Virus record (IMG/VR): IMGVR_UViG_3300025009_000056
Source of the DNA: a virus
Lineage: Duplodnaviria; Heunggongvirae; Uroviricota; Caudoviricetes
Reading direction: 5' to 3' (one strand)
DNA: 64,000 bases
Positions 11,241 through 37,586 of the stretch are shown here, in pieces; position 1 is the stretch's first letter, and the number at the start of each line of letters is the position of its first letter. The position numbers were made by a program, and so were the translations under genes. The notes under the pieces were generated by a model. That model had not been told where the DNA came from, made no database searches, and was given only the letters and a program-made list of their open reading frames with translations.

Positions 11241-11294
11241 ATATTTCATAAACATAAGCAAATACATTATCTTTGCATACTCAAAACAAGAAGA

Positions 11295-11420: not shown

Positions 11421-11437
11421 TAACCAAAAAATAAAAA

Positions 11438-12430: not shown

Positions 12431-12443
12431 AAAATAAATAATC

Positions 12444-12961: not shown

Positions 12962-12973
12962 AACAATAAAAAC

Positions 12974-13228
12974 ATGGATTACTCAGTACAGCATAATAGT
13001 TTTATCATCACTCAAAAAGACTTACAAAACTTTTCACTAAGCATGAAATACATCATGAAAAGCATTCGGAAAGAATTAGGCTATCCGATTGGTAGACGAA
13101 AGCATGACGGGGGACTGGAGCCAATCGACCATATAGAGCGTGAAATTCTAGATGCCTGCAAGCGTATCGGAATTGATTTCGGCGCTGAATGGGGACATCA
13201 ATTAGACCTATCAGATGTCGAGGGGTAG
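12974..13228 (+). CDS. hypothetical protein
   Basis: ORF in run. Confidence 0.65.
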   Translation: MDYSVQHNSFIITQKDLQNFSLSMKYIMKSIRKELGYPIGRRKHDGGLEPIDHIEREILDACKRIGIDFGAEWGHQLDLSDVEG

Positions 13229-13313
13229 GTTCCTGTTGAATTAATAATTTGACACTCCTGTTTCGTATTTGATTTTTTCCTACTTTTGCAAAACAAACCC
13301 AAAAACAAAAGTC

Positions 13314-14039: not shown

Positions 14040-14052
14040 AAACAAAAACAAT

Positions 14053-14358
14053 ATGAGCTATTTTTGGAAAAGGAGAAAAGCAGATTGGTACGAAGTGACA
14101 GATGTATTGAAAAAATCATTTCCAGAGTTGAAAAATTACTACCCAGATGATGTAGTAAGTTATTTGAGATGTTGCAGTTTGGAATTTTATAAAAAAGAAA
14201 AGATAAAAACAAATCCATTGATAAGAATAACACTCCCGTTTGCTTTTGTGTTTGCGATTATACTGATTGTTATTTCTCCGATTTCATACATAATTACAGG
14301 CAAGTGGGGATACAAAATGAATTGGGTTGGTAATTGGTTTAAACATCTTGGGTTTTAA
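14053..14358 (+). CDS. membrane protein
   Basis: ORF (start moved to ATG 14053); TM segment FAFVFAIILIVISPI. Confidence 0.65.
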   Translation: MSYFWKRRKADWYEVTDVLKKSFPELKNYYPDDVVSYLRCCSLEFYKKEKIKTNPLIRITLPFAFVFAIILIVISPISYIITGKWGYKMNWVGNWFKHLGF

Positions 14359-14370
14359 AAAAAACAAAAC

Positions 14371-14835
14371 ATGAAAAGATTTTTTTACGCTTGCGGTGCT
14401 TTTTGGCTCGCTCTCACAAAGCCCCAAATGTTTCAGATGGGTCTAATGCAAATCGTAAGAGTGATGTTTGAAACGCTTGCTGCGGCGGCAAGACAAAAGA
14501 CACCCCTGACGACAAAATTATGCAATCTTAATACAACAGATGATGGTAAGCCAGATGTTTTATTAACCTTGTGGATTGGTATCGGAGAGGACTCTAATCC
14601 AGCCAGTAGATGCGCTGAATTAGCTGAGAAAATCAGAAAAATGGAATCAGAAAAGCCGATAATATCTAAAGCTGAAATACTCAGCAATATAACCCTTACC
14701 GGAACAATACCTACGTTAACAAACATGCTACCAAACCCAGACCCGCAAAACCCACTTATGCTTTGTGGCGGAATGCGTGTTGACATAAAGAATCTGATTG
14801 AATGCTTGAATAGTAAGGGAGTAATCGTAAAATAA
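14371..14835 (+). CDS. hypothetical protein
   Basis: ORF in run. Confidence 0.65.
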   Translation: MKRFFYACGAFWLALTKPQMFQMGLMQIVRVMFETLAAAARQKTPLTTKLCNLNTTDDGKPDVLLTLWIGIGEDSNPASRCAELAEKIRKMESEKPIISKAEILSNITLTGTIPTLTNMLPNPDPQNPLMLCGGMRVDIKNLIECLNSKGVIVK

Positions 14836-14877
14836 ACAACTATACAAATTTTTAACCAACACAAAAACTTTAAATAA

Positions 14878-15375
14878 ATGAGTAATACTGCAAATTCAGT
14901 GGATTACGGAAGAATAATCCAGATGCTCGAAAGTGAACTTATTAATCAGCAGGAGTACGCTAAAATCCTGCAAAAAGAAATAACGTCACTCAATAATAAA
15001 TTGAAATCAACAATCATAGACCCTGAATTCATTGGTGATAAAAAGATACAGAAAGAAAAGCAACTGTGCGAAACCATAAGCGGCTACAATGAAATGATTG
15101 CTTTGATTGAAACAAACGCAACACTCCTTGACGAATACAAGAAAAGAAAATCCGGCTGGGATAAAACTGTTTCAGAGGCATTCAAAGAGGCTGTAGATGG
15201 TGGATTTGACAATCTTATTAATCGGGCAAGGAAAATCAATGACCCAAAGATGAAACAACGCCTAAAAGATTTTGAGTCCGTTGTAAAGAACGGAGGCGCA
15301 AACAAAGAGCAAAAAGCAACAGCATATCTCGCCTTCAGAAATGAGGTCTGTATATATGAAAAGCAACAAAAGTAA
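14878..15375 (+). CDS. coiled-coil hypothetical protein
   Basis: heptad-like helical sequence. Confidence 0.65.
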   Translation: MSNTANSVDYGRIIQMLESELINQQEYAKILQKEITSLNNKLKSTIIDPEFIGDKKIQKEKQLCETISGYNEMIALIETNATLLDEYKKRKSGWDKTVSEAFKEAVDGGFDNLINRARKINDPKMKQRLKDFESVVKNGGANKEQKATAYLAFRNEVCIYEKQQK

Positions 15376-15394
15376 AAACCAAAACAAAAAAAAG

Positions 15395-15829
15395 ATGAAG
15401 CAGAAAGAAAACAAAAACTCAAAAAACGTGAACAAAAAAGAAGTGAAAGCGGTAAAGAAAACACCTGCTGTCTCGATGAAAACAACAACTTCTACAAAAA
15501 GCAGTAAAACACCTCCCAAGATGGCCGCAAAGAAAGCACCCGTTATCACGATGAAAACAGCAACCCCCGCAAAAAGCAACAAGCCTAGCCCTAAGATGAA
15601 TGCAAAAGCGGTAACACCAACACCGAAAATGAAATACAAATTCAAACTTGGTGACAAGGTGCAAACCACCGCTGGGAACCGGAGAGTTAAAAACAAAAAA
15701 TTCAAAGGAACTGTTGTCGGGTTTGGTACATGGCGGGAATTTAAAAGCATTACCGTTTTAAAAAACAGTAAAAGTGTAACACAGCGCCGCGTGAAATGTC
15801 TCGAAAAAAATCTCATTAAGGTCTTTTAG
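15395..15829 (+). CDS. Lys/Pro/Ala-rich (histone H1-like) protein with C-terminal SH3/KOW-like domain
   Basis: KKTPA/KKAP low-complexity region then FKLGDKVQ...FKGTVVG. Confidence 0.55.
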   Translation: MKQKENKNSKNVNKKEVKAVKKTPAVSMKTTTSTKSSKTPPKMAAKKAPVITMKTATPAKSNKPSPKMNAKAVTPTPKMKYKFKLGDKVQTTAGNRRVKNKKFKGTVVGFGTWREFKSITVLKNSKSVTQRRVKCLEKNLIKVF

Positions 15830-15850
15830 TTTAATTTTTATTTGATTATC

Positions 15851-15881
15851 AGCAAGTGGTGTAAAAAGCCACTTGCTTTTT
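15851..15881 (+). terminator. intrinsic terminator
   Basis: AGCAAGTGG/CCACTTGCT stem followed by T run. Confidence 0.75.
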
Positions 15882-15894
15882 AAAACACAAAAAC

Positions 15895-16542
15895 ATGTCT
15901 AAACTTTTTTGCTTTGATACAGAGACAACAGGATTGGATACACGGAAATGTGCTATTCACCAATTGTCTGGAAAGATAATAATCAACGATGAGGTAAAGG
16001 AAATTTTCAACTTTAAAATCAGACCACACGAGGGCGCAATTATCAACGATGAGTCTCTGGAAATATCCGGTGTTACACGTGAGCAAATAATGGCTTACCC
16101 TAGTCCGGTTGAGTTTTATCAGGCACTTATAAAGATGTTGTCAAAATATGTTGACAAATTCAATAAGCGTGATAAATTTCATCTCGCTGGATTCAATAAT
16201 TGCAAATTCGACAATGAATTATTGAGGGCGCTTTTCGAAAGGATGGAGGATAAATATTTCGGCTCATGGTTTTGGTCGGACTCTATTGATGCGATGGTTT
16301 TAGCATCATTGTTTCTTGAGGACAAAAGAGCATTAATGCCGGACTTTAAATTAATGACCGTAGCCAAATTCTGCGGAATTCCGGTTGATGAATCAAAGCT
16401 GCATGACGCTCAATACGATATTGAGATAACATACAGGGTGATTAAAGGAATCAAAACGTACATGAATATGGGGATTAAAGCATGGAATGTAAAAATAGAA
16501 CAAAAAAAACAGGCAAAACAACAGAGTCAATTGGATTTATAG
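15895..16542 (+). CDS. DEDDh 3'-5' exonuclease (DnaQ-like)
   Basis: FDTETTG, AGFNNCKFD, LHDAQYD. Confidence 0.9.
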   Translation: MSKLFCFDTETTGLDTRKCAIHQLSGKIIINDEVKEIFNFKIRPHEGAIINDESLEISGVTREQIMAYPSPVEFYQALIKMLSKYVDKFNKRDKFHLAGFNNCKFDNELLRALFERMEDKYFGSWFWSDSIDAMVLASLFLEDKRALMPDFKLMTVAKFCGIPVDESKLHDAQYDIEITYRVIKGIKTYMNMGIKAWNVKIEQKKQAKQQSQLDL

Positions 16543-16778
16543 ATTTTGCCGATATTAATTTCGAATGTCCGTACTGCGGTAAAGATTATGCCGATATTGA
16601 CGATAAATATCTCAACAGGTGTAACAAGAATAAAAACTGCTGCACGAAAATAAAATGCGACTGCGGAAATACGTTTTCAATGACCTACGGATTCATGGGT
16701 AATGCTGTCGGATTTAAAACCGAAAAACTAGAGAACCTGATAAACTCAAAAAAACAAACCACCCTAATTAACAACTGA
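16482..16778 (+). CDS. Zn-ribbon protein
   Basis: CPYCG...CDCG. Confidence 0.55.
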   Translation: MECKNRTKKTGKTTESIGFIDFADINFECPYCGKDYADIDDKYLNRCNKNKNCCTKIKCDCGNTFSMTYGFMGNAVGFKTEKLENLINSKKQTTLINN

Positions 16779-16785
16779 CAAAAAA

Positions 16786-17043
16786 ATGAAAAGCACACAA
16801 CAACAAATAGATGAGGTTATTTCATGTTTTCCACCGAAATACAAAGAAGGCTTTACGTCAGCTGACATCGGAATACTCGTGAGCATGTTTCCAGAAATGA
16901 ATAAGGATTGTTTCAACAATGCATTGACCGGAATAACAGCAAAACTTGTTTGCGGAGAAATTGTAATTTACGAACACGATGTTCGCACAGCACTCCGGTG
17001 CGGAATTGAAGGCCGCGACATGTCAATGGAGGAATTTGATTAA
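16786..17043 (+). CDS. hypothetical protein
   Basis: ORF in run. Confidence 0.65.
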   Translation: MKSTQQQIDEVISCFPPKYKEGFTSADIGILVSMFPEMNKDCFNNALTGITAKLVCGEIVIYEHDVRTALRCGIEGRDMSMEEFD

Positions 17044-17096
17044 CCATTTACCACAATAACCAATAAACCTATTTTATTGGCAATAATAACAAAACT

Positions 17097-17309
17097 ATGA
17101 CTGAAAAACAAAATCCATTATTAAAAGACGAAATCACGGAAAGTGATTTAAGGATTGGTGTTGAATTACCTGAAGGCTGGAAAAACTGGAACACAATGTC
17201 GCTGGATGAGTGCGCGGATTATCTACATAAACAATACTGTTTTCTGAGTAGCGGTGACGCTTACTGTATAAATAGACTCGTGGAGTTTTATCAAAAAAAC
17301 AAGTCGTAA
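17097..17309 (+). CDS. hypothetical protein
   Basis: ORF in run. Confidence 0.6.
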   Translation: MTEKQNPLLKDEITESDLRIGVELPEGWKNWNTMSLDECADYLHKQYCFLSSGDAYCINRLVEFYQKNKS

Positions 17310-17366
17310 TGATTGCAAATTCCAACATTACAACCAAAACACTATCATAATGATTGCAAATTCCAA
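17307..17366 (+). repeat. 19-bp direct repeat duplicating a gene start
   Basis: TAATGATTGCAAATTCCAA at 17307 and 17348. Confidence 0.85.
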
Positions 17367-17523
17367 TATAACATTTCCGAAACTAGTTGTGTTTATCTGG
17401 TTACTCCTACCGATAGTAATGCTATGCTCGATGTTTACATCCGGATTTGTTTTTATAACATCATTCATTATCGAAATTATTCTAACTATCACACTACTGG
17501 TTTTGATTATATTTAAAACATAG
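17350..17523 (+). CDS. small 2-TM membrane protein
   Basis: manually translated 57 aa MIANSNITFPKLVVFIWLLLP...; more plausible than track ORF 17313..17516. Confidence 0.55.
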   Translation: MIANSNITFPKLVVFIWLLLPIVMLCSMFTSGFVFITSFIIEIILTITLLVLIIFKT

Positions 17524-17713
17524 CTGTCAAAAATAAAGATTGATTTCATTCTCAAAAATAGCTATCTTTGTAAAAAAAAGATGCGCCGGAAAATAAAGTT
17601 TAAAAGACCGAGACATCTTCACCGAAAGGAAGATGTTTTTGGCTTTAATCTGATTCCGGAAAAGTCCAGATTTGATTATTTTAATATTGATTTTTTTAAA
17701 CACATAGACAGAG

Positions 17714-18190
17714 ATGAAAGTATACGCACTCAGCAGGGAATCATTCAATACAACGGTACGCCAGAATGGTTTGACCGACGAGAATATTGAGCAAAAGGAA
17801 AACTTATTCTGCATCTGTATCTGGTGCGATAAAAACGACGAAAAGCATCCGTTTTATTTCGGACAGGAACATAAAAATGTCCGATATTTCTACTTTTATG
17901 ACATCGACAAAGATTGCATAGATGAGCAAAACAATATTGTTTACCCCGTAATTTCAGACGAAACAGCTGAAGCGATTGTGAAATACATCGTAGAAAACAA
18001 GGGTAAAAAACTCTGTCTTGTTCATTGTGCCGCCGGAATATCCCGCAGTGGAGCCGTTGCCACATTCATCAATGATTTATACGGTGAGCCATATAGAGAG
18101 TTTATTCAAAAAAACAGCGCAATCAACCCAAATGTTACCGTGTTAATAAAACTCCGGAACGCATACGAAAAACTATTTCCGAATGGTTGA
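17714..18190 (+). CDS. protein tyrosine/dual-specificity phosphatase
   Basis: VHCAAGISRS (HCxxGxxR) P-loop. Confidence 0.85.
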   Translation: MKVYALSRESFNTTVRQNGLTDENIEQKENLFCICIWCDKNDEKHPFYFGQEHKNVRYFYFYDIDKDCIDEQNNIVYPVISDETAEAIVKYIVENKGKKLCLVHCAAGISRSGAVATFINDLYGEPYREFIQKNSAINPNVTVLIKLRNAYEKLFPNG

Positions 18191-18365
18191 AAAATCAAAG
18201 ATAAGAATAGGAGCTGATTATTTTTATAGATGCCGGACTAAATGCAAGGTTTTATCCGTAAACGCAATAACGGCTATCTGCCGCATCGTTGGAGTAAAGA
18301 GGCAATATATAGGTGCTGCTTATTTTTCAGAGCTGAGTGAGACTAAATGCCACGAAAACCATTGA
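18183..18365 (+). CDS. hypothetical protein
   Basis: ORF in run. Confidence 0.5.
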   Translation: MVEKSKIRIGADYFYRCRTKCKVLSVNAITAICRIVGVKRQYIGAAYFSELSETKCHENH

Positions 18366-18370
18366 TTTCC

Positions 18371-18412
18371 TAGACACTTACCTAGACACTACTTAGACAC
18401 CAGTTTAGACAT
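18371..18412 (+). repeat. four TAGAC(AC) direct repeats
   Basis: copies at 18371, 18383, 18394, 18406. Confidence 0.75.
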
Positions 18413-18436
18413 GAGTAAAAATAAAAACAATTCAGA

Positions 18437-18670
18437 ATGCAAAAATTTTCACCTGATTACAAAGGAAATTCACATCCTATCCGACAGAGATTAAAAGCAA
18501 TCTGGCACATCCTGTTTGACCGGAATTTTATTCTGATAACCGGAATAAGGCAATTTATTAAAGAGGGACAAAATTGCAGGAGACTGGAGGTAATCAGGCG
18601 CACGGATTATGGTGGCGAATCAGACTATTTATCATGCCTCGGTGGTGCGGAACTAAGTAAATCCGAATAA
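18437..18670 (+). CDS. hypothetical protein
   Basis: last ORF of + strand block. Confidence 0.6.
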   Translation: MQKFSPDYKGNSHPIRQRLKAIWHILFDRNFILITGIRQFIKEGQNCRRLEVIRRTDYGGESDYLSCLGGAELSKSE

Positions 18671-18710
18671 AGATAGAGAAAGATAGGCCGTAAGATAGAA
18701 GATAAGATAG
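18670..18710 (+). repeat. four AAGATAG direct repeats at strand convergence
   Basis: copies at 18670, 18680, 18692, 18704. Confidence 0.7.
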
Positions 18711-18723
18711 ACATTAGTCTACG

Positions 18724-19599
18724 CTATAATCTCAACCTCTTTTTTTCATGATACTCCAGACTAACATCTCGCATTGATTTAAACCTGTGATTAACACAAT
18801 CCTCTATCAATTTTTTTGACACGTTCCAGTATTGAGAATTATCATATTTATGCGCTTGGCTTCTCTGTCTTACGCTATCTATAATTCCCCAAATATCATA
18901 CTCCATTACAATTTCGGCGAATCCAAAATACGACTGATTGACAATATTTGAATTTTTCTCTTTCATTAAAAGGATAGCCTTATTAATTTCGTCATCAAAA
19001 GACCTATCAGCATGTTTTTCACAGGCGGATATATCAAAACCGTTTTCGAAATAAAATCCAAGACGGCTATTGTCGTAAATTGATTTTTCTATATCAATTT
19101 CGGTAAATCCTAATCGAAATTGAGACCAATTGCTAAAAAGGCCAAAAAGCCCCATTTCTCCATTCTTATTCCTGCTTGCATCACAAACGAGAAAGAGTAA
19201 ATCACACAACTCCCTCATTGAACGAAAAACCTCCGACCTTGTTTTACTTCGTGTAAATTCAAGTTTTGAAAAAACAGGCAATACACGCAAAATAAACGAC
19301 ATGAAAACACGCTCTTTCTGATTGAGTGGTGGAAAATATTGACTATCTGAAACTCCGCGAATAGTGAGTAAGTAGCCATCATTACAAATTGTTTCCGGAC
19401 TAATAAAAACCTCTGTATTTTCCAGCTTCAGTTTCGGCTCACCATCAACGGAAAACACCTCAAAATCTCCAACGTTTCTCCAAACCAAAGCCTTTACGTG
19501 TTTTGTTTTTATGCAGTAAACAGAAACATCATCTCCGACCTTAATTTCGTTTCCGAGATAATCAAAAATATTTTTCATTGGGACTCTGGTAAAAATCAT
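18724..19599 (-). CDS. hypothetical protein
   Basis: long ORF; no recognised motif. Confidence 0.7.
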   Translation of the reverse strand: MIFTRVPMKNIFDYLGNEIKVGDDVSVYCIKTKHVKALVWRNVGDFEVFSVDGEPKLKLENTEVFISPETICNDGYLLTIRGVSDSQYFPPLNQKERVFMSFILRVLPVFSKLEFTRSKTRSEVFRSMRELCDLLFLVCDASRNKNGEMGLFGLFSNWSQFRLGFTEIDIEKSIYDNSRLGFYFENGFDISACEKHADRSFDDEINKAILLMKEKNSNIVNQSYFGFAEIVMEYDIWGIIDSVRQRSQAHKYDNSQYWNVSKKLIEDCVNHRFKSMRDVSLEYHEKKRLRL

Positions 19600-26448: not shown

Positions 26449-27828
26449 TTATGGGATATAGGATAGACGAGAGCAAATATACCCAGCGGCATTTGTTGGC
26501 GAAAAAGTAGAACGAATAAAAATAAGTCCAGCAGAAGTGGTGTGAAGTGCAAGACCTCCAATAAGGATAGTTCTAAGAGAGGAGATTGTAGCACTATGTT
26601 CAAAATTGTCACACCAAAAAGTAGTTGCACTACCGCCAACTGTACCACCAACATTAGGGGTTATTTCACCGTAAGTCCCATCCAAATTGGTTTTAATATA
26701 TCCGTTAGCCCGTGCTATCAATCCTCTGTCCGAATACCCATTGTAATTTACATCATTGAATAATGCAGGGTCGTTCGTCACCCACATCCTACTGTAATCA
26801 CCATCGGCTACCGTTTTCACATCGACATTAACGCCATCTAAGTTTTTAAACACATGACCAAATGGCATTTCTATACCTCTGTATCTATTTACGGTGAATG
26901 AGCGTGGAACACCAGCACCACCAAAGTCGGTAACTGCAACGGAAACCTCGCCTGATTTAGTGGCAAGTGTGTTTGAAGCACCGCAGCTTATAAATGGATA
27001 ACGAGTATTAAAAGTATTCCATTCCGCATCAATAGCGGTAGTTACGCCGTCCCCCAATCCACCTTTCCTATACCCCTCTGTCGTAAATGTAGCATCGATA
27101 GCTTTTTGACTATTTCTTGTGGCGTATTCAACGACAAATAACCAAGTGATTGCCTTGTGTTGTTCGTATGTATTTATGTTCCATTTTGTGCCAGCGGCTC
27201 TATTTCTTGCGTAAGTACGGAAGTTGGTACGGGTTAATAATGTTGCAGGCTTTCCCAATAATGTATTTGCCGCAGCATCCCACGCAGCATTGTTATCGCC
27301 ACCTCTATAATCTGTCGTAGCGTTGACTACACTCGATAATTTTAACGTAGGTCGATATAAACTCGCCTCGTATGCCCCGATATAAAATGCGGGTACAGCA
27401 TGAAATCCAGAGATAGGGTATTGACTTATTTTGCAGCGGTAAGTATTGCCGGACGTTTCAAACTTTCGATAATGCAATGGAACATATATCATCACCTGAC
27501 CGTCTGTGCCGCTTAAATCCGATGCTGTGCCGTCAATCTTCTTTGACCAGTCGTTTTCGTTTAGCCAGTAATTAACTGTGCCATTGTCAAGTAACAAACA
27601 CGCTCTCATGCCGTTCTGAATAGGCAATGAAGCGTGGAGTTTCATATCGTCTACTGACGATGCTATACGGGTTACGTCCGGTGAGGTGGCGGTGATGTCG
27701 TATTCGATGCCGTACCAATGTTCACCGTAAGTGATTACTTTCCCGTTATATTTCAAAACCTCTTGACCAATACTTAAAAATGGCATCAGTAAAGCGAGCA
27801 ACAAAAACAATTTTTTCATCTTATTCAT
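26449..27828 (-). CDS. secreted C-type-lectin-fold (DGR-target family) spike/adhesin, copy A
   Basis: signal peptide ..SIG|Q; YIGAYEA, NRYRGIEMPFG, GG..AG..SRL C-terminus; ~90% identical to 31806..33152 except last 60 aa. Confidence 0.8.
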   Translation of the reverse strand: MNKMKKLFLLLALLMPFLSIGQEVLKYNGKVITYGEHWYGIEYDITATSPDVTRIASSVDDMKLHASLPIQNGMRACLLLDNGTVNYWLNENDWSKKIDGTASDLSGTDGQVMIYVPLHYRKFETSGNTYRCKISQYPISGFHAVPAFYIGAYEASLYRPTLKLSSVVNATTDYRGGDNNAAWDAAANTLLGKPATLLTRTNFRTYARNRAAGTKWNINTYEQHKAITWLFVVEYATRNSQKAIDATFTTEGYRKGGLGDGVTTAIDAEWNTFNTRYPFISCGASNTLATKSGEVSVAVTDFGGAGVPRSFTVNRYRGIEMPFGHVFKNLDGVNVDVKTVADGDYSRMWVTNDPALFNDVNYNGYSDRGLIARANGYIKTNLDGTYGEITPNVGGTVGGSATTFWCDNFEHSATISSLRTILIGGLALHTTSAGLIFIRSTFSPTNAAGYICSRLSYIP

Positions 27829-27862
27829 TTTTTCAATTTAAGTGCAAAGCTAATACTTTTTA

Positions 27863-28684
27863 TTATAATTTTGAATTAATTTTTTCAACACCAAAAAACG
27901 CTATCGGGTCGTAATAGTTTTTACAGACACTATCCCGAACCTCGAAGTGTAGATGACACGAATAGCAAGAACTGGCAGAACCAGTATTCCCCACGTTAGC
28001 AAACCACTCACCCTTACTTAATTTAGTTCCAACCTGTATTCCGGATGTCTGTGCAAGATGCATATACAGTGTGTAAAAAACATTCCCCTTGTAATCGTGT
28101 TTTACAATTACATAATGACCGGATGTGTTGTCAAATCCGATATAGGTTATTTCTCCATCATAAGCAGAAACCACATGCTGTTTTCCTATCAGATTATGGT
28201 CACTATTATAATCCAACCCCTGATGCAAGACATACTGCATTAAATTATTATCAGCATATACCGGATTCTGCATCTCTATTCCTTTCAGATATTCCGGAAT
28301 ATTCGTAAAATTAAACCATGCTTTAACACCCAGACTTCCGGTATTAAGTTTTAAAACCTCCCTGATTCTATACTGTCGTAATGGGTCATATCCATCGGCA
28401 ATATTTTTCATATTTTCATCATCAAAACGAGCGTTTACCACAATGCCCGTTTTCTTGTTTTTATACACAACCTGCCCTTTTCTCGTCGCCTGCGCTGTAG
28501 ATGGGAAACCTAATTCTTTCCATGTGGGTATATACCAATCTTCAGGACTGGTTAATATATCCATGTTGTAAACTCCATCGCGCGACTGAACTGTGTTTTC
28601 TTTTTCCTCTTCCATTACTTTTCGTTTTTCTATTACGGTTTTAAGTTCCGAAAAATCATTTACCACCACTGCTTTATTAGCCAT
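27863..28684 (-). CDS. M23 family peptidoglycan endopeptidase
   Basis: HQGLD, YMHL, GNTG...CHLHFEV; promoter box for next gene at 27845-27852. Confidence 0.88.
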   Translation of the reverse strand: MANKAVVVNDFSELKTVIEKRKVMEEEKENTVQSRDGVYNMDILTSPEDWYIPTWKELGFPSTAQATRKGQVVYKNKKTGIVVNARFDDENMKNIADGYDPLRQYRIREVLKLNTGSLGVKAWFNFTNIPEYLKGIEMQNPVYADNNLMQYVLHQGLDYNSDHNLIGKQHVVSAYDGEITYIGFDNTSGHYVIVKHDYKGNVFYTLYMHLAQTSGIQVGTKLSKGEWFANVGNTGSASSCYSCHLHFEVRDSVCKNYYDPIAFFGVEKINSKL

Positions 28685-29223
28685 TACTCACGAATTAAAA
28701 AACGGTCAAATTTGTCGTCGTTAAAAATATCAACAGGAGCAATCTTATTCCAATTGGGAAAATATTTATAGTCCAATTTATTATAGACATAAGCGCACCA
28801 CTCACCACAGATAAAGCGCTTATCACTCTTACTCTGCTTACGTCCTATCCATTTACCAAACATAAACCTTATTGGCTGGTAGAATAAAAGGTTCACAAAA
28901 TCATAAGGCACGTGACCGCATTTAGGAAGCATCACGGATGCAAGCCTGACAGGGTGTAGTTTGTCGTCTTTTATTTTTGGCGAACAATACATTAATCCAG
29001 CTTTACCGCTTATGTAATCCGAAAACTTAGTAAGCGATATTCCGCGCTTATCGGACTCGCATACAAAAAGCTCATCGTATAACCAAATGAAAACAGCGGC
29101 GTGATTCCACTTGTTTTTCTCAAAAAACTGAATAGCTCGCGCCAACCATTTTCTACCACTAACAAGCAAAATATCGCCCGTGTTGATTTCTGTAATATTG
29201 CACTGAATTGATTTATTTCTCAT
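28684..29223 (-). CDS. permuted papain-like (NlpC/P60, YiiX/YebB-like) amidase/acyltransferase
   Basis: GDILL, WNHAAV, YDF, FICGEW (His before Cys). Confidence 0.8.
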   Translation of the reverse strand: MRNKSIQCNITEINTGDILLVSGRKWLARAIQFFEKNKWNHAAVFIWLYDELFVCESDKRGISLTKFSDYISGKAGLMYCSPKIKDDKLHPVRLASVMLPKCGHVPYDFVNLLFYQPIRFMFGKWIGRKQSKSDKRFICGEWCAYVYNKLDYKYFPNWNKIAPVDIFNDDKFDRFLIRE

Positions 29224-29230
29224 ATTATTT

Positions 29231-30841
29231 TTATTGACTACTTGTATCCCAGTTCACATCCTGAATTATTACAACATCTCCTGAATTAGCACTTGTAACC
29301 CATATCTCAAAATAGTCCGCAGGAGCAACATTTGGAATATATGCTACGGTGGAAAAAGCAAACGGCTGGTTTGCTGTTGGTATCCTTGCCGACATTTGTC
29401 CATATTTGGTTGCAGCATTCCCGTTTTTCACGATACAAACATCTATCACTCTATTAATCTGATTAACCTGTATATTGCAGCAAACAACCATCCGTATATC
29501 TCTTTTGTTTACGGGTTGATATGTCATACTGTTATCAGCTATCGTAAACTTACAGGTGTAAAATGACGTATTTGTGAACGCTGCTTTATAAAAAGTACCG
29601 CCAGCCGAAATAGTTGTTCCGGTGACATTGTTTTGAACGCCTATTCCGGCGTGTGGAGATTTGCTTTCTATACCAGCATTATTATCGATATACGCATTAG
29701 CATCACGTCCATCAGCGCGGGTGAAATCGAAACCTTCAATAAAATATCCAGTATTATTCCACGTGCATCCAGTTATGTATATATGAGCAATATTGGTAAA
29801 TGTAGCCGGAGTATAAACGATTCCACTATCATTCACTGTGCCGTTCTGAAATTCACAACCACCATCAATAAGAATATAAGCCTTACTACCTTTCAATAAA
29901 TGAACGCCTTTATCGCAATTGATAAATGCTGTCGTCACCATCCTGAATCTAACGCTGTCGTTAGCTCCGGTAATTACTATCCCTGCGTCTTTAATATTGC
30001 GCATATCACCCTCTTGAATCCAAATTTCAGCCTGAGTGGAATCAATAATACCATTCCAAAAACCATCCATTGAAAAATCTTTCACTTCATTATAGGTGTC
30101 CTCGCCTAAGAAACGAATACAATCTTCTCCTGCGTGTGTTCCGTATGTGGCTAAAGCGGTCGCATCAAATGTTATCATCTTGAAATAACAATCGGTTTGG
30201 CATCGAAACATTGGTTTACCAAGCAATCCTGTTGCAGCGGAAATAGTTGTTTCCCCGTATGAAATCCCTTCAATCGTTAATGGATACGGCAAATTTACAT
30301 CAATAGTATTTGCAATTGTATAATTATTACCACCAAGACGAACAACGGACGGGTCTTTCATGTGTTCACCAAGAAAAACCATCACCTCTGCGATAGTGGT
30401 GAAAGAACCTGTTTCAGATACATCAAAAATATTATCAGTCCTGACATTTTTCTCTTTCACAATCCAATTAGTATCTTTGACAACGTAAGTTTTTCCAACC
30501 CATCTTGTTAATCGACTTGTATCCACTGCGTCAATCTTAATGCCCGAATAACCAGCAACGGAAACATAATCAGTATACGTTCCGACATTTTTTATCGTTA
30601 TAGTTAATCCATTGTCAGCAGCGGTAACATCGGGCAATGTCAGAATAATATCACCGCTTGCCTCTACAAAAGCATCTGTTTTCAATAGTGTGTCAGTCGC
30701 TGTTTTAATAACCGGAATTGTAATATTGCCAGAACTTGTCAATATTCCACTTGAGTTTATTTTTACCGTGTTATCATTCAGGTTTATCTGCCCCATCGCA
30801 AGGATTGGAAGCAGCATTATTATCATTATCAGTTTTTTCAT
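29231..30841 (-). CDS. secreted beta-helix-like spike protein
   Basis: signal peptide MKKLIMIIMLLPILAMG|Q (start moved to 30841); parallel-beta-helix-like repeats. Confidence 0.65.
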   Translation of the reverse strand: MKKLIMIIMLLPILAMGQINLNDNTVKINSSGILTSSGNITIPVIKTATDTLLKTDAFVEASGDIILTLPDVTAADNGLTITIKNVGTYTDYVSVAGYSGIKIDAVDTSRLTRWVGKTYVVKDTNWIVKEKNVRTDNIFDVSETGSFTTIAEVMVFLGEHMKDPSVVRLGGNNYTIANTIDVNLPYPLTIEGISYGETTISAATGLLGKPMFRCQTDCYFKMITFDATALATYGTHAGEDCIRFLGEDTYNEVKDFSMDGFWNGIIDSTQAEIWIQEGDMRNIKDAGIVITGANDSVRFRMVTTAFINCDKGVHLLKGSKAYILIDGGCEFQNGTVNDSGIVYTPATFTNIAHIYITGCTWNNTGYFIEGFDFTRADGRDANAYIDNNAGIESKSPHAGIGVQNNVTGTTISAGGTFYKAAFTNTSFYTCKFTIADNSMTYQPVNKRDIRMVVCCNIQVNQINRVIDVCIVKNGNAATKYGQMSARIPTANQPFAFSTVAYIPNVAPADYFEIWVTSANSGDVVIIQDVNWDTSSQ

Positions 30842-31461
30842 TAGTTCATTATTTGAATTACACCGCTCACGTTTATTAAAATGTTCCCAGCACTCTCCGT
30901 TCCCCATTGATAGGTAATGTCAAGTAGGTTGTCAACTGTTGTGTTTATACCCACCCCTATTGCGATAAAGGAACGCTGCGCTCCACCTACAAGCATGGTT
31001 GCTCCCATTACATTGCAAGTTCCGCTAACGCCAGTAGTTATTATCGTTATTTCAACTGTTATATCAGCTATTGTATTGGTGTGCGCTGCAAGTGTAGCGG
31101 TAGATGTGACAAGCGTTGAATCTCCGGCTTTTATCCTGATGATATTCGTCGGGTTTCCTGTTGATGTAAAGTCTGCCTTAGTGTTTATTCGGAATACTTT
31201 TCCAGCCGTAAGTAGTTCAGAAGGCATTGTTCTTGTTCCAATAGCGTTGGCATCATCGAAAAACGATGTTTCTACTAAGGTATTTGTGATTGTCTTTGAA
31301 GACATCTGCGTATACACATTGCGATTATCGTAAGTATTAGCACCATACTGCACTGCTACTGTATTGCCGCCTGTAATTTGAACACTGTTATTATTTAGAT
31401 TAAGTGTTTGACCTATCATTACAATAGGTATTATCATCAATATGAACGCAAGTGTTTTCAT
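30841..31461 (-). CDS. secreted beta-rich protein
   Basis: signal peptide ..VMIG|Q; mature N-terminus resembles that of 29231..30841. Confidence 0.7.
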   Translation of the reverse strand: MKTLAFILMIIPIVMIGQTLNLNNNSVQITGGNTVAVQYGANTYDNRNVYTQMSSKTITNTLVETSFFDDANAIGTRTMPSELLTAGKVFRINTKADFTSTGNPTNIIRIKAGDSTLVTSTATLAAHTNTIADITVEITIITTGVSGTCNVMGATMLVGGAQRSFIAIGVGINTTVDNLLDITYQWGTESAGNILINVSGVIQIMN

Positions 31462-31736
31462 ATAATTTCTTTTGGTGGATTATAACTAAACTCATTCCCT
31501 ACTATAGTCACGTTAAACATCTCCTCGCATTGTTCCTTTGTATAGATAGGCAATACGCAGCCATTGTCATAGTGGCAGCACGTTTCGTGGCAGTTATTGT
31601 CGCAGAATTGCTGATTAACAGGACACATCTTCTGGTCGCTTTCTGTTGCTCCGTATGCGACCTGATAGCCGCCTTCAACCTCTGTGAGTGTGGCAAAGTA
31701 GCTGATTTGTCCTGATGTTCCGATGTCTATTTTCAT
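31458..31736 (-). CDS. small Cys-rich protein
   Basis: CPVNQQFCDNNCHETCCHYDNGC. Confidence 0.65.
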   Translation of the reverse strand: MKIDIGTSGQISYFATLTEVEGGYQVAYGATESDQKMCPVNQQFCDNNCHETCCHYDNGCVLPIYTKEQCEEMFNVTIVGNEFSYNPPKEII

Positions 31737-31805
31737 ATTGTTTTATTTTTAAGTCACTCAATCTTCGGGCTGGGTGTTTCGTTTTCGTTCGCTCCGCTAA
31801 ATAAA

Positions 31806-33152
31806 CTAAGGAATAAAGCAAAGGCGAGAGCCAAAATTCGTATACATAAACGAAGGCGCGTTAATCGAGAAAACGAACACGAAGCCCGCATTCGTACTAG
31901 AACCCGCAGTACCGCCGACGAGGAGGGTACGAAGTGAACTTGAATTAATGTCTGTAAAAAAGTAATCTGTCCAATATATGTCGTAGTTACCACCAACAAT
32001 ACCACCAACATTAGGAACTATTTCACCATAAGTACCATCTAAATTGGTTTTAATGTATCCGTTAGCTCGTGCTATTAACCCTCTGTCCGAATAGCCAGTA
32101 TAATTAGCATCATTGAATAAAGCAGGATTATTCGTTACCCACATCCTCGAATAATCGCCTTGCGCAACCGTTTTTACATCTACGTTTACCCCATCCAAGT
32201 TCTTAAATATATGACCAAATGGCATCTCTATACCTCTGTACCTATTAGCAGCAAATGAGCGTGGAACACCAGCACCGCCAAAGTCTGTTACTGCTACACT
32301 AACTTCGCCTGATTTTGTGGCTAAAATATTTGAAGCACCGCAATTTATGAACGGATACAAACTATTGAAATTAGTCCATTCTGTACCATTAGCGGTTGTT
32401 ACGCCATTACCTAATCCACCTTTCCTATACCCCTCTGTCGTAAATGTAGCATCAACGGCTTTCTGACTATTACGAGTTGCATATTCAACTACAAATAACC
32501 AAGTTATTGTTTTGTGTTGCTCGTATGTGTTTATATTCCATTTTGTCCCAGCGGCTCTATTTCTTGCGTAGGTGCGGAAATTGGTACGGCTTAATTGAGT
32601 TGCAGGCTTACCCAATAAAGTATTAGCTTGTGCATCCCAAGCAGCATTATTATTACCACCTCTGTAATCAGTTGTGGCGTTTACTACTGAACTTAGTTTT
32701 AACGTTGGTCTGTAAACGCTTGCTTCGTATGCACCCAAATAAAACGCAGGGACTTCGTGGAAGCCAGCGATGGGGTATTGTGATATTTTGCAACGGTAAG
32801 TATTGCCCGAAGTTTCAAACTTTCGGTAGTGTAAGGGAACGTATATCATTACCTGACCGTCTATGCCTGATAAATCGGAAGCCGTGCCGTCTGCTTTTTT
32901 TGACCAGTCGTTTTCGTTTAGCCAGTAATTCACTGTTCCGTTATCGAGCAACAAACACGCTCTCATTCCATTCTGTATAGGTAATGAGGCGTGGAGTTTC
33001 ATGTCTCCCGTGCTTGATATTCTTGTTACGTCAGGTGATGTGGCCGTAATATCATATTCTATGCCGTACCACGCCTTACCGTAAGTAACAACCTTTTGTC
33101 CTACCAAGAAAAGAGGTAGTAACAGCGATATGAATAAAAGTATTTTTTTCAT
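31806..33152 (-). CDS. secreted DGR target protein (C-type lectin fold), copy B
   Basis: signal peptide ..LVG|Q; C-terminal GG.A...NAGF.....S..APS......GSRLCFIP. Confidence 0.85.
   Translation of the reverse strand: MKKILLFISLLLPLFLVGQKVVTYGKAWYGIEYDITATSPDVTRISSTGDMKLHASLPIQNGMRACLLLDNGTVNYWLNENDWSKKADGTASDLSGIDGQVMIYVPLHYRKFETSGNTYRCKISQYPIAGFHEVPAFYLGAYEASVYRPTLKLSSVVNATTDYRGGNNNAAWDAQANTLLGKPATQLSRTNFRTYARNRAAGTKWNINTYEQHKTITWLFVVEYATRNSQKAVDATFTTEGYRKGGLGNGVTTANGTEWTNFNSLYPFINCGASNILATKSGEVSVAVTDFGGAGVPRSFAANRYRGIEMPFGHIFKNLDGVNVDVKTVAQGDYSRMWVTNNPALFNDANYTGYSDRGLIARANGYIKTNLDGTYGEIVPNVGGIVGGNYDIYWTDYFFTDINSSSLRTLLVGGTAGSSTNAGFVFVFSINAPSFMYTNFGSRLCFIP
31809..31926 (-). other. DGR variable region (VR)
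   Basis: GC-richer segment with fixed NCG codons alternating with NNY codons, ending GGCTCTCGCCTTTGCTTT. Confidence 0.75.
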
Positions 33153-33169
33153 CTTTTAAGCCTTAGTTT

Positions 33170-36100
33170 TTAGTGCGTGTAAACATATTTTACAGTTCTC
33201 GAACCACCTAACTTATTTTCAATCGTAGTGTATGCACCACCATCGTAAATATTCAAATTACCATCAGTGCCGCCCGTTGTTGTCACATTAGCTGAGTTTT
33301 GAACCAATAGACCGATTGAACCATCAGCGTTTGTAATAACGGTTGCAAATTGGTCATATACACCTGAATTGTAAACAAAAACTCTTAATTCACCGTAAGC
33401 TCCGGCTCTCAAATTAATAATACCATCGTCGGCAACTACTAAGCTATCTGCATCGGGAGCTAAGTGATAAATATCAAAGAGTGCGTCTTCGAGTGAAACG
33501 CTGTCTGTAACTGTTAAATGCTCCATGAAAGTTGTGTCTGCTATGTAGGCGTTGCCTCTCACGCTCAAAGTCGTATCTGCCGTATATGGCAAAACAACTT
33601 TTCCGTTCAATTGTGTCAGCGTAATAGCTGTGTTCCCGATGTTCACACTGTTACTACCCAATCCGATAGCGTTATATCCGATAACAGTTTCGTTTTGGTC
33701 GTTGTCTGCCAAAGCTCTTGTGCCTGCACCGAGAAATAAACAGTAGTCAGAAGTGGTGTTTGCGGTTGCTCCATCAGTTATGTACATACCTGCCTGAAAT
33801 CCTTGCGCAGTATTAGTAAATCCGGTTGTGTTTTTATAGAGCGCACTCATTCCGCTTGCGGTATTACTGTGACCGGAAATATTGTCATTCATAGAAAACA
33901 TACCATTTGCAGTATTTTGATACCCGATTGTGTTACTTGTTAAAGACTGCACCCCATTAGCGGTATTATAATATCCCTCAGTATTAGCTGTTAATGCTGT
34001 TACACCTGTCGCAGTATTGTAATATCCGGTTGTGTTATTCAACAAAACACTATGCCCGATACCTGTATTGAAAGATGATTGGTTTGATGCGGTGGCAGTC
34101 GTTCCCATCGTTAAATTACCAGCATTTTCACCTAAAAACGTATTGTAACCATCAGTTGTCACCGCTCCATTGTTACCGTAATTAAAATTATGGATGAATG
34201 TTGCTGCATCTTTGTAGATAACACCATATTTAGTTGCGTTGGTAGTGTTCAATAAACTTATGTTTTGCTGCGGGAACATATCTCCATTGAAACGAGATGT
34301 ACCCCGCACACTAAGCATTGTGTCCGCTGGCGTTTGCATTATTACCTTTCCTATAAAAGTTGACGTGCTATCAGTCGGGTCAACAATCAATATTGCATCG
34401 GTTGTGCTTGAACTGTCGCCTATGTAGGTTTTGCCGTTTTTAAGGACACGGAAAGCATCATTCCTTGTTGTATCAGCCAATCCATTTCCTATTTGAAAGA
34501 GCGGGTCATATGAATACCAATCAGTATTATGTTCGTATTGCAGGGTGTCATTATACGCCCCACATACAAAACTTGACACCGCATCCGCCTTAACATCAAA
34601 TCCAAGCGCTTGTGAATAATATGATGTAGCTCTTGACTCCCAGCCACCCGCGATAGCCGCCCATCCAGATGCAGTTGTGTTATAACCTTCTGCATGCGAA
34701 TACTCCCCAGATGCAGTTGTGTTATAACCTTCTGCATGCGAATCCGTCCCAGCTGCAGTTGTGCTACTACCCTCTGCATGCGAATCCGTCCCAGCTGCAG
34801 TTGTGCTACTACCCTCTGCATGAGAATAATTCCCAGATGCAGTTGTGCTACCACCCTCTGCATGCGAATACGCCCCAGATGCAGTTGTGCTACCACCCTC
34901 TGCATGCGAATCCTCCCCAGATGCAGTTGTGTTATAACCTTCTGCATGAGAATAATTCCCAGATGCAGTTGTTAGACTACCCTCTGAGTGAGAATATAAA
35001 CCATTAGCTGTATTATATGCACCCTCTACATGGCAACCATACGAACCATTATATATTCTGTTTTGAATTCCCTCAATATGATTACCTGAACCAGATGTCA
35101 TTGAATCAAAAACAACAATATAATAATTCCAATTATCATATATATTTGTAATATCCTCATTTATAGTTAACACAGTGTTTGTTCCATTAAATGACGATGT
35201 GTTTATTGTCGCAATCATAAAATTAGAACCATCGTTATAATTCTCAGCATATATTGTTATCCCAGATGTAAAATTAGATGTTACATCCCCCTCGCTCGAC
35301 TCCAATATTATTTCAGCTGGTGAATTTGTAACAGTATTAATTAAAAATGCCTTAGCTCCAATAATATTTGATTTTCCGCTAACAAAATTACTTTCGCCAG
35401 TAACTATACAACTATCCCCATACGCAAATGAATTTCCAGACACAGTATTCACGCCTCCACCTGAAAAATTACCAATAAAAGTTGACGTGCTATCAGTCGG
35501 GTCAACAATCAATATTGCATCGGTTGTGCCAGAACTATCGCCTATGTATGTTTTACCGTTTTTCAAAACTCTAAAAGCATCGTTTTGAGTCCCCCAACCA
35601 GTTCCATTACCTATTTGAAACAAAGGGTCTGTTGTCACCCAACTCACCTTGCTTGCTGGTAATGTATCGTTATAATATCCAAAAGTAGCAGAGTTCCATG
35701 AATTACAAAAAGATGACCCAGCAGCAAAACCAAAAGAAGTATAATTTACCGCATCATTACAAGCAAATGAATTTTGCATACTTGAATTAAAGTTTTCAGC
35801 TATATTACAAACAAAACCATCCTCTTGATTATTTTGACCATCATTTAAAGCAGCACCTCTAAAACCAAATTGATGTCCTCCGTTTGCTGAAAATCCATAT
35901 TCTGCATTATTATCACTATTATTAAAAGCTGCTCCCCATTTAGCTAAAGAATATGAATTTAAACCATGTACAATACAAAAGTTAGAGTCTACAGGGCCTA
36001 ATGTCATTGCATCTCCAACCCTCAAGCTACCAAATATTCTATAGTTATCATACAAGCTATCACCAGTTGTTTTGACATAGCCAGTATCAGAGACGTTGGG

Positions 36101-37249
36101 AATCCAAGCTGTGTTTTGTTTTGTCCCATCATTAAAAACTATACTATCTTCAATAAATATATTATTGTTAAAACGAGACACACCATGTACACTTAGCGTT
36201 GTATCAGCCGCGTATGTCATTATTACTTTACCCGACCTAAAATTATGTTCTGTAACACTCGTGTTCCCATAAACATATTGATTGTCAGCGGTTGTGTATG
36301 CGCTTTCACCAATAGCCATTGTATTTACAGCATCGACTTTTTGAGAAGCATGGTAGCCAGCACTAAGTCCGATAAATATATTATTTGTTGTAGGACTTGT
36401 TAAGCTACGTCCAGCATTAACACCAAGTAATGTATTCCCATTTGTATTTGCAGTCATACCATTACCAGCGTTTGTACCTATACCGACATTATCTGAACCC
36501 GTCGTCATATTTTGTAATGCACCGCCACCCATAGCTACGTTATAACTACCTGTGACTTTATATAAGGCAAAATCACCAACGGCTGTGTTTGAGTTACCTA
36601 CGACATTTAGGTTTAAGGAGTTAACCCCTATTGCAATATTAGAACTTCCTGACGAGTTCTTGTATAAAGCTGTACGACCAATAGCGATATTATTATTCCC
36701 CGTTATATTGCTATTAAGTGTTGCTGTCCCAATCGCAGTATTTAACCGTCCCGTTGTATTAACAATAAAAGAATAAGCACCCACTATGGTATTTCCGTCA
36801 CCAGTTGTCGTAGCTTGCATTGCTCGATAACCTATTGCAGTATTTTCATTACCAGTTGTAATAGCGTTTAACGCCGTATTACCAAGTGCTGTATTTGTTA
36901 AAATATTACTATTACCTTTACCAATGCGCAAACTGTTAATATATGAATCATAGGTGGCATTAAACATACCTCTTACCGATAGCATCGTATCATTCGGGCT
37001 TGACAAAATCAGTTTATTGTAAATCATGGTAGAACTATCCGCTTTCACGAAATCCATGAAGCGTTTATTACCGCTGTACCGAAGTTGGAATTTATCAACA
37101 CGCCAACCCATTTTGAATGTGTCAGTGCCATTCTGAAAATAGTTGTCGTATGTACCCGAAACAACACGCAATCTGCCGTAAATAGGCGACTGAGAAAAAC
37201 TAACATACGCTGCCAACGACAACGCTAAAAATAATAATATCCGTTTCAT
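33170..37249 (-). CDS. large secreted fibre/adhesin with YadA-like head repeats
   Basis: signal peptide ..VSFS|Q (start 37249); NTAxG..AL..NTTG repeats; SHAEG..TTASG repeats. Confidence 0.85.
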   Translation of the reverse strand: MKRILLFLALSLAAYVSFSQSPIYGRLRVVSGTYDNYFQNGTDTFKMGWRVDKFQLRYSGNKRFMDFVKADSSTMIYNKLILSSPNDTMLSVRGMFNATYDSYINSLRIGKGNSNILTNTALGNTALNAITTGNENTAIGYRAMQATTTGDGNTIVGAYSFIVNTTGRLNTAIGTATLNSNITGNNNIAIGRTALYKNSSGSSNIAIGVNSLNLNVVGNSNTAVGDFALYKVTGSYNVAMGGGALQNMTTGSDNVGIGTNAGNGMTANTNGNTLLGVNAGRSLTSPTTNNIFIGLSAGYHASQKVDAVNTMAIGESAYTTADNQYVYGNTSVTEHNFRSGKVIMTYAADTTLSVHGVSRFNNNIFIEDSIVFNDGTKQNTAWIPNVSDTGYVKTTGDSLYDNYRIFGSLRVGDAMTLGPVDSNFCIVHGLNSYSLAKWGAAFNNSDNNAEYGFSANGGHQFGFRGAALNDGQNNQEDGFVCNIAENFNSSMQNSFACNDAVNYTSFGFAAGSSFCNSWNSATFGYYNDTLPASKVSWVTTDPLFQIGNGTGWGTQNDAFRVLKNGKTYIGDSSGTTDAILIVDPTDSTSTFIGNFSGGGVNTVSGNSFAYGDSCIVTGESNFVSGKSNIIGAKAFLINTVTNSPAEIILESSEGDVTSNFTSGITIYAENYNDGSNFMIATINTSSFNGTNTVLTINEDITNIYDNWNYYIVVFDSMTSGSGNHIEGIQNRIYNGSYGCHVEGAYNTANGLYSHSEGSLTTASGNYSHAEGYNTTASGEDSHAEGGSTTASGAYSHAEGGSTTASGNYSHAEGSSTTAAGTDSHAEGSSTTAAGTDSHAEGYNTTASGEYSHAEGYNTTASGWAAIAGGWESRATSYYSQALGFDVKADAVSSFVCGAYNDTLQYEHNTDWYSYDPLFQIGNGLADTTRNDAFRVLKNGKTYIGDSSSTTDAILIVDPTDSTSTFIGKVIMQTPADTMLSVRGTSRFNGDMFPQQNISLLNTTNATKYGVIYKDAATFIHNFNYGNNGAVTTDGYNTFLGENAGNLTMGTTATASNQSSFNTGIGHSVLLNNTTGYYNTATGVTALTANTEGYYNTANGVQSLTSNTIGYQNTANGMFSMNDNISGHSNTASGMSALYKNTTGFTNTAQGFQAGMYITDGATANTTSDYCLFLGAGTRALADNDQNETVIGYNAIGLGSNSVNIGNTAITLTQLNGKVVLPYTADTTLSVRGNAYIADTTFMEHLTVTDSVSLEDALFDIYHLAPDADSLVVADDGIINLRAGAYGELRVFVYNSGVYDQFATVITNADGSIGLLVQNSANVTTTGGTDGNLNIYDGGAYTTIENKLGGSRTVKYVYTH
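34353..34507 (-). repeat. intragenic module duplicated at 35475-35629
   Basis: 55 bp identical core; DPLFQIGNG...NDAFRVLKNGKTYIGDSS.TTDAILIVDPTDSTSTFIG twice. Confidence 0.85.
34665..35000 (-). repeat. 8 x 42-bp coding tandem repeat
   Basis: period 42 nt encoding SHAEGxxTTASGxx. Confidence 0.92.
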
Positions 37250-37277
37250 ATTTTCCGTTTTCACTTTTTTAATAAAA

Positions 37278-37586
37278 TTACGAGCCAACAGCAACAATAG
37301 TTAATCCGGACGGTAAATCGGTAAGAACCATAATTGTAAAACTAGTCTTCTCACTACCTGCCGTTCCTACCGCATCCCCTTTTTCTAATGTATCAATAAG
37401 CACAACCAGATTTGCATCCTGCACCTGAAGGATGTAATCTCCGTTTGCAAAAGTTGCACCACCATCAAAAAGAACAGTTTTTGCAACTCCAGCCACTAAA
37501 GCTCCGGTTGCTGTTGAAACAACCTTAGCAGGCGAACCACCACTTCCGGTTGTTGCAGGCTTTTTTAAATCTAATCTTCCACCCAT
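37278..37586 (-). CDS. small beta-rich protein (candidate vertex/spike component)
   Basis: Gly/Thr/Val-rich alternating strands, next to fibre gene. Confidence 0.55.
   Translation of the reverse strand: MGGRLDLKKPATTGSGGSPAKVVSTATGALVAGVAKTVLFDGGATFANGDYILQVQDANLVVLIDTLEKGDAVGTAGSEKTSFTIMVLTDLPSGLTIVAVGS

Follow-up and report, generated by a model that had tools for sequence, protein, structure and literature searches.

We describe here the variable end of gene B, a 448-codon gene on the minus strand of the IMG/VR virus record IMGVR_UViG_3300025009_000056, which with the spacer that follows it takes up positions 31,737 to 33,152 of the window, by which we mean the whole stretch of 64,000 nucleotides (nt) that was analysed. 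The variable region (VR) of gene B is probably a target of a diversity-generating retroelement (DGR) of known class, recently written and now orphaned and frozen, which stands beside a decayed paralogue. By comparison of sequences, positions 31824-31934 can be said with high confidence to have been written from a DGR template and positions 31810-31832 to form the homing boundary, because the VR and the 23-nt element show the anatomy of a variable region and a homing site down to synonymous nucleotides. Rewriting that goes on now appears unlikely, because the downstream template and reverse transcriptase (RT) are missing, a search of about 78% of the genome found neither, and the VR is invariant across samples and strains. 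This class of VR is well populated and already described, and orphaned targets are known too. The features discussed below are the following, IMH standing for initiation of mutagenic homing.

31806-33152, minus strand: gene B (protein P0001), 448 amino acids (aa), DGR-type variable protein, a stand-alone C-type-lectin/FGE-fold module
31824-31934, minus strand: VR, Leu407-Arg443, matching the stretch that is template-derived in relatives
31810-31832, minus strand: IMH-like 3' element GGCTCTCGCCTTTGCTTTATTCC, putative homing boundary of the VR, by likeness to the VR ends of relatives
31737-31805, minus strand: spacer of 69 nt 3' of the gene B stop codon, preceding the next gene and including a CGAA-rich tract
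33099-33152, minus strand: predicted Sec/signal-peptidase-I leader of gene B, residues 1-18 (MKKILLFISLLLPLFLVG, followed by Q), read from the sequence by the Bacteroidetes Q-rule
26449-27828, minus strand: gene A, 459 aa, paralogue of B with a leader of the same kind, 4 kb downstream
26467-26577, minus strand: gene A tip, decayed and non-targetable counterpart of the VR

Codon anatomy of the tip and its template-linked relatives

The last 46 codons of gene B include seven NCG codons (GCG three times, ACG and TCG twice each) interleaved with NNY codons, and the gene closes with GGC TCT CGC CTT TGC TTT ATT CCT TAG (31832-31806). A CGAA-rich stretch lies at about 31764-31797, within the spacer. 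All three traits had been pointed out in the initial annotation of this DNA, and all three are present. Adenine makes up 12.3% of the 114-nt tip versus 30% of gene B as a whole, and G+C content is 51% in the tip versus 41% in gene B and 37% in the window; the tip contains 14 CpG dinucleotides, a number reached in 0.05% of 114-nt windows on the same strand. All 14 adenines of the tip are at codon positions 1 or 2. Third-position A is seen in 0 of 40 tip codons versus 130 of 408 codons in the body of the gene, and we calculate the chance of such a deficit at the body rate to be about 2e-7; NCG codons, on the other hand, account for seven of the 40 tip codons versus 16 of the 408.

The meaning of these numbers becomes apparent from the relatives of gene B in which the retroelement is still at hand. 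An alignment-based search of IMG/VR gave 80 related loci with proteins 45-58% identical to gene B, and each locus was scanned for a repeat of the last 90 templated bases, mismatches being tolerated only at A of the repeat. Among the 71 loci that could be assessed, i.e., had at least 1.5 kb of downstream sequence, 69 have a template repeat and an RT within about 1 kb downstream of the target. Per 90 nt, the templates differ from their VRs by 0-2 non-A mismatches and by 7-25 that are A-specific; the distance from the stop codon to the template is 49-515 nt, and that from the template to the RT gene is 118-173 nt. The consensus of 72 templates reads GGT AAT GCG AAT AAC GGT GCG AAT GCA GGC TTC ... 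TCG AAT AAC ACC CCC TCG AAT ACG AAT GCG AAC ATC GGC TCT, a design in which fixed NCG codons (GCG, TCG or ACG) alternate with AAY codons (AAT or AAC).

The VR of gene B aligns with this consensus codon for codon, without gaps: each of the family's ten AAY codons corresponds to an NNY codon in gene B, and most of the fixed codons GCG, TCG, GGC and TTC are identical between the two. The VRs of the relatives end with GG(C/T)TCTCGCCTTTGCTTTAT(C/T/A)CC, and in their templates this place is taken by a fixed variant, CAC CTA. The 15-nt IMH core, TCTCGCCTTTGCTTT, is exactly preserved in 44 of the 72 template-linked VRs; as these belong to proteins only about 50% identical, its conservation indicates constraint at the DNA level. 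The same 72 VRs have on average 0.29 third-position A (maximum 2) and 7.9 NCG codons (minimum 6), and by these counts the gene B tip, with none and seven, is indistinguishable from them. The span initially annotated as variable, with its far limit at 31926, corresponds to a real VR and is slightly short at its start, because the templates of the relatives place the beginning of the templated stretch near 31934 (Leu407).

The motif of gene B had been called typical of DGR targets in Bacteroidota, and indeed it belongs to the "CLec3 / SRLC" class of targets, which is typically Avd-less (PMC7290462); a "lineage 3 / CLec3" class is attributed in that paper to Wu et al., 2018. The closest known systems are the Avd-less DGRs of crAss-like and other Bacteroidota phages, which have the layout target, VR with IMH, template with its own form of that site (IMH-star), and RT. 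Their target domain is homologous to gene B (27% identity to the LMMB protein, see below), and the position and length of the VR, the AAY/NCG design, the GSRLC motif and the IMH nucleotides are the same. The differences are that these systems have a template and an RT downstream, whereas gene B has neither downstream nor in about 153 kb of its genome; that their targets sit on fibre shafts, whereas the gene B module is unfused and placed behind a predicted Sec leader; and that the virus with gene B, a ~195-kb groundwater genome, shows no recognisable hallmarks of tailed phages, unlike the carriers of crAss-like-type DGRs.

The spacer after gene B contains no template and no RT. Nor does it contain a hairpin: its DNA fold is no better than that of shuffled sequences (z +1.4), and the best stem is 2 bp. 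In the relatives the hairpins after the VR range from stems of 10-11 bp down to none detectable, and with such wide variation a downstream hairpin, as in BPP-1, is not a defining trait of the phrog_5302-type target family. Spacers of the relatives are likewise rich in C, G and A, and many have a small hairpin of the GCGTAACACG type, which is absent after gene B. The GCGTAACACG(C) motif, or mini-hairpin, is shared by many template-linked relatives, among them L040, L060, L076, L086, L087, L096 and L110, where it is located 15-30 nt after the VR; DGRs of this class may use it as their hairpin for target recognition.

A putatively exported lectin module, its sisters and its decayed paralogue

Gene B matches the PHROGs family phrog_5302, annotated as "tail protein", with E value of 1.9e-96, and gene A matches it at about 1e-96; neither has a match in Pfam. 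An exhaustive HMMER search yields 2005 clusters (at 50% identity) related to gene B, and in most of them the ~420-residue module makes up the C-terminal end of longer proteins, which reach about 1300 aa. The AlphaFold (AF2) model of gene B, built from 60 homologues, has a predicted local distance difference test score (pLDDT) of 94. Its top structural match is TaqVP (Z 24.3, root mean square deviation 2.9 A over 261 residues), in an alignment that extends to the last residue of both proteins (residue 448 in gene B); further matches are TvpA (Z 13.1), FGE (about 12) and Mtd (Z 10.3), and the alignments with TvpA and Mtd also run through residue 448. TaqVP of Thermus and TvpA of Treponema are cellular variable proteins, and Mtd of the Bordetella phage BPP-1 is a trimeric tail-fibre tip. 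TaqVP (5VF4), TvpA (2Y3C) and Mtd (1YU0) resemble gene B in having a C-type-lectin/FGE fold with variable residues in the C-terminal stretch, and differ from it in sequence, identity being just 12-17%. As modelled, the end of gene B is a real C-type-lectin tip, because the family matches, the AlphaFold model and the structural matches to TaqVP, TvpA, FGE and Mtd all say so; together with the templates of the relatives and the IMH, the TaqVP-like fold upholds the initial description of this stretch as a DGR-type variable region on a lectin tip.

The nearest relatives in annotated phages are found in crAss-like phages (cr50_1 and others), at no more than 41% identity. Other annotated relatives come from a Bacteroides phage, from viruses of Porphyromonas, Polaribacter and Methanosarcina, and from crAssphage LMMB, where the homologue, called "tail-collar fibre protein", has been published as the DGR target (PMC7290462). 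The loci of the IMG/VR relatives contain no homologues of the genes surrounding gene B, and this includes the 92-aa open reading frame (ORF) downstream of it. As a marker, the stretch would show that this poorly understood groundwater virus of ~195 kb trades receptor-binding modules with phages of Bacteroidota, the crAss-like ones among them.

The protein had been described as secreted, and its N-terminus does read as a Sec-type leader. The Q-rule used in this prediction is established for signal-peptidase-I substrates of Bacteroidetes (PMC5837995) and has also been reported for some proteins of Porphyromonas phages (PMC10367356). Of 18 stand-alone homologues, the only ones with such a leader are A, B and P0126, a sister at 81% identity. 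Five neighbouring minus-strand genes (26449-37297) have Sec-type leaders that end in G or S before Q: those for a 1375-aa fibre-like protein, gene B, a 206-aa protein, a 536/558-aa protein, and gene A. The 1375-aa protein, encoded just upstream of gene B, has PHROG matches to tail-spike and virion proteins. This block of Q-rule leaders points to a host in Bacteroidota. The lectin module would be able to function on its own, as an exported protein and not as the tip of a fibre.

Three sister proteins (P0126, P0298 and P0299) are 81-83% identical to gene B and have a similar leader. They carry two further VR sequences on the invariant protein scaffold VGG.A.....AG.V.V.S..AP......FGSRLCFIP, and their VRs differ from that of gene B at positions of the AAY type, which at the protein level suggests that variation of the DGR type may have occurred inside this exported lineage. 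When metagenomes were scanned for the 81%-identical lineage, no relative above 61% identity was found.

Genes A and B are 83% identical at the amino acid level and 81% at the nucleotide level in their bodies, and of their last 60 residues only around one in three is shared. The tip of gene A has A in the third position of seven of 40 codons and a single NCG codon, far outside the range of template-linked VRs; six of 23 bases at the IMH position differ from gene B, and there are at least 33 non-A mismatches to the template of every relative (19-23 for B). Most likely, A is the older copy, already decayed.

Taken together, gene B would be a Sec-exported, stand-alone member of a large C-type-lectin (FGE-fold) family of variable proteins, which in Bacteroidota phages such as the crAss-like ones serve as tail-fibre tips and are rewritten by Avd-less DGRs of the target-template-RT layout. 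Its VR evidently originated as adenine-mutagenised cDNA of a template of the type GGT AAT GCG AAT AAT ... TCG AAT AAC ... GGC TCT. We infer that the last rewrite came far later than the A/B duplication, because no synonymous A has crept back into the tip in a genome of 37% G+C, and a rewrite that followed the duplication by so long would be relatively recent. At present, the target would be orphaned and frozen, with a binding tip that keeps one specificity.

Template, reverse transcriptase and the question of present activity

An exact copy of protein P0001 is encoded on each of 9-12 contigs from groundwater, the longest of about 195 kb (sister contigs measure 195,376 and 195,945 bp); groundwater runs that contain the virus belong to study PRJNA268031 (for example SRR1658469, SRR1658472 and SRR1658473). 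One of the contigs, ENA scaffold_178 (ERZ28564009; 194,286 bp), was read at positions about 1-153.6 kb, with the window at about 59.3-123.4 kb; the search for template and RT covered about 153 kb of the ~195-kb genome, or about 78%. In the window, no template for the gene B VR is detected by the adenine-tolerant scan, the best candidates being merely A-rich tracts, and no RT by tblastn or by a scan for YxDD, as the initial annotation had it. In the ~153 kb, the adenine-tolerant scan of both strands leaves at least 22 non-A mismatches in 112 nt in the best case, so the template differing only at A that had been anticipated for the full genome is not seen in this part of it. Over the same length, no RT is found by tblastn, by the YxDD scan, in precomputed Pfam assignments, or with a hidden Markov model (HMM) made from 63 DGR RTs, whose best score is 15 bits versus 437-535 bits on positive-control loci.

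One gene of interest was found in this larger region. It encodes 156 aa (L034:1117-1587, contig about 151.9-152.5 kb), is located about 29 kb past the end of the window, and has a core that ends with ...AANAAGSRLCY, encoded by a GC-rich, CpG-rich and adenine-poor island. With the GSRLC motif common to both used as the anchor of an alignment, the island and the gene B VR are only 36% identical; they differ at third positions where neither has A, and thus no single template made both. The island is identical in both strains of the virus that are present in the samples. The ~153 kb contain no further paralogue. A separate search for small paralogues, made with the last 104 residues, retrieved one unrelated fragment.

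Comparison across samples shows no sign of diversification. In a collection of 15 billion proteins, P0001 has no variant and stands alone in its 90% cluster. Four sequencing runs each gave one unbroken contig, at 7-11x depth, and the four are identical across the VR, with zero differences; elsewhere the two strains differ at 0.08-0.24% of sites. Variation of the VR confined to template-adenine positions is likewise not seen among contigs of this one aquifer study, whose strains are nearly clonal. It is known that assemblies break at variable repeats (PMC8008677); at the gene B VR they are unbroken in all four runs. The active diversification by a remote or trans-acting template and RT that was proposed initially is not borne out by these data (neither element in about 153 kb, no protein variant, no differences among runs), and with all routes counted together we consider it rather unlikely.

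Several points nevertheless weigh against an orphaned and frozen target. A fresh codon signature and an intact IMH are also what would be expected of an active target. The last ~41 kb (contig about 153.6-195 kb) could contain an RT together with a second template. Assembly drops minority variants, so at 7-11x depth assembled contigs leave room for low-level diversification, and a single aquifer study, with near-clonal samples, is the source of all of them.

A distant RT and a cognate template in the same genome, within the remaining ~41 kb, might be thought to diversify the VR actively, which we consider unlikely. In its favour, the IMH is intact, as is the VR, in which synonymous A is wholly lacking; gene B and its sister lineages have three different VRs between them; the 156-aa gene, about 29 kb past the window, has a similar adenine-poor island ending with GSRLCY; and remote second targets are known, the Quimbyvirus DGR hitting two genes, one of them distal (PMC8008677). 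A resident DGR in the last ~41 kb is possible, but the island needs a different template, and a second one would be required to serve gene B. Moreover, neither the VR nor the island varies between the two strains, and relatives have their template and RT within about 1 kb of the target in 69 of 71 cases. The four runs contain no second template-like contig at 80% likeness or more, as judged by an aligner of uncertain sensitivity, which may not seed on a ~83%-identical template. Like this virus, Quimbyvirus has a structural-type target and VR-like ends elsewhere, which here belong to small non-structural proteins (PMC8008677); in Quimbyvirus, however, both VRs fit one template, whereas the two islands here cannot share one, and no RT was found. 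If an RT and a matching template are present in the rest of the genome, the range of DGRs would grow to include a virus in which no tail genes can be recognised; if they are not, A and B would be a dated pair, a decayed and a fresh VR side by side, usable for studying the fate of DGR targets after loss of the retroelement.

A more elaborate version of continued activity, which we find quite improbable, is that a very large (~195 kb), possibly tailless and membrane-containing virus of Bacteroidota took the DGR-diversifiable lectin tip from fibres of tailed phages, added a Sec leader of the host type, exports the tip as a spike of the envelope or membrane or as a secreted factor, and still diversifies it from a remote or shared retroelement. 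Terminase, portal and HK97-capsid families are not represented in the precomputed Pfam hits of genes called along the 153 kb, and among the papers listed by a literature search none links DGRs with tailless viruses. Were this version true, no earlier DGR target would be known outside tailed phages and cells, and the targets would be scattered, without a cassette.

Servicing in trans is less probable again, and indeed very doubtful. Here the VR would be rewritten, via the conserved IMH, by a DGR of the same family residing in the host, in a prophage or in a co-infecting phage. Even relatives that have diverged widely keep nearly the same IMH core, so that one element could in principle home into the target of another, and fresh-looking VRs without a cognate template recur, for example cr50_1 gp044, which is found beside an RT that serves another gene. 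However, none of the templates of the 72 relatives fits the gene B VR: they show 19-23 non-A mismatches, and the best of them, with 19, is at the level of non-cognate pairs (control median 18). The VR also shows no variation between samples. We know of no DGR for which homing in trans between replicons has been shown.

Finally, an origin unrelated to retroelements, i.e., by chance, by local codon bias or by import of the tip from a GC-rich donor, is left room only by the lack of a template for the direct adenine-mismatch test, and is effectively refuted by the coincidence it would need (codon match to 72 templates, nucleotide-identical IMH and TaqVP-like fold) and by the 2e-7 chance of a tip with no third-position A.

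An orphaned and frozen target, the reading we prefer, has precedents. Incomplete DGR cassettes are found in 66 of 91 genomes of genus-I AlphacrAssvirinae (PMC7290462). Orphans with VRs that look equally fresh are cr50_1 gp044 and the loci L091, L116 and L122, the latter three without a template or RT within 3-6 kb. The VR of gp044, a phrog_5302 member, has no third-position A and seven NCG codons, and no template for it exists anywhere in the record. Like gene B, gp044 and the other crAss-like orphans have a VR and an IMH-like end without a cognate template; the difference is that cr50_1 has an RT and a template adjacent to gp044, which serve another gene, whereas in the virus with gene B no RT is seen at all.

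We rejected gp044, which is annotated as "tail protein", as a target of the adjacent DGR of cr50_1, its VR having no template and the true template/VR pair being located in a fibre gene. The template of the cr50_1 RT matches the end of that gene, which is more than 1363 aa long, and 23 of the 26 mismatches are at A of the template. This DGR target gene is unannotated and spans the ends of the linear record (NC_055868.1; L001:49-143, 322-413, 557-1597). The first 4 kb of that record have no features, and a 56-nt duplicate is common to both of its ends.

Other genes and the ends of the genome

PHROG and Pfam scans of 30 other ORFs in the window gave almost no matches, the exceptions being wall hydrolases and a Zot/A32-like ATPase. 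The latter is a 287-aa P-loop protein (54247-55110, minus strand) with a borderline match to Zot (20.6 bits versus a cut-off of 20.3) and a weak match to poxvirus A32, and is a candidate packaging ATPase of the FtsK/A32 type. Among the early genes there is a 385-aa protein of the TnpB/IS605 OrfB type (7082-8239, plus strand; HTH_OrfB_IS605, OrfB_IS605 and Cas12f1-like_TNB). To the right of the window there are two giant genes, for proteins of 3016 and 3049 aa (ART-PolyVal, LPD1; L033:896-9946 and 10001-19150), which follow a 1000-aa LPD11 protein that starts in the window (62829-64000); all of these are "polyvalent protein" genes.

The large contigs of different samples start within about 400 nt of each other (L028:1-620), at an A-rich and then G-rich non-coding stretch, and the left contig end may be a physical end of the genome or a terminal repeat. 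The two strains differ at about 34665-34996, inside the gene of the 1375-aa fibre-like protein, by a ~200-nt indel or a change in repeat copy number, and this gene is called as 1372 aa in one strain and as 1401 aa in the other.

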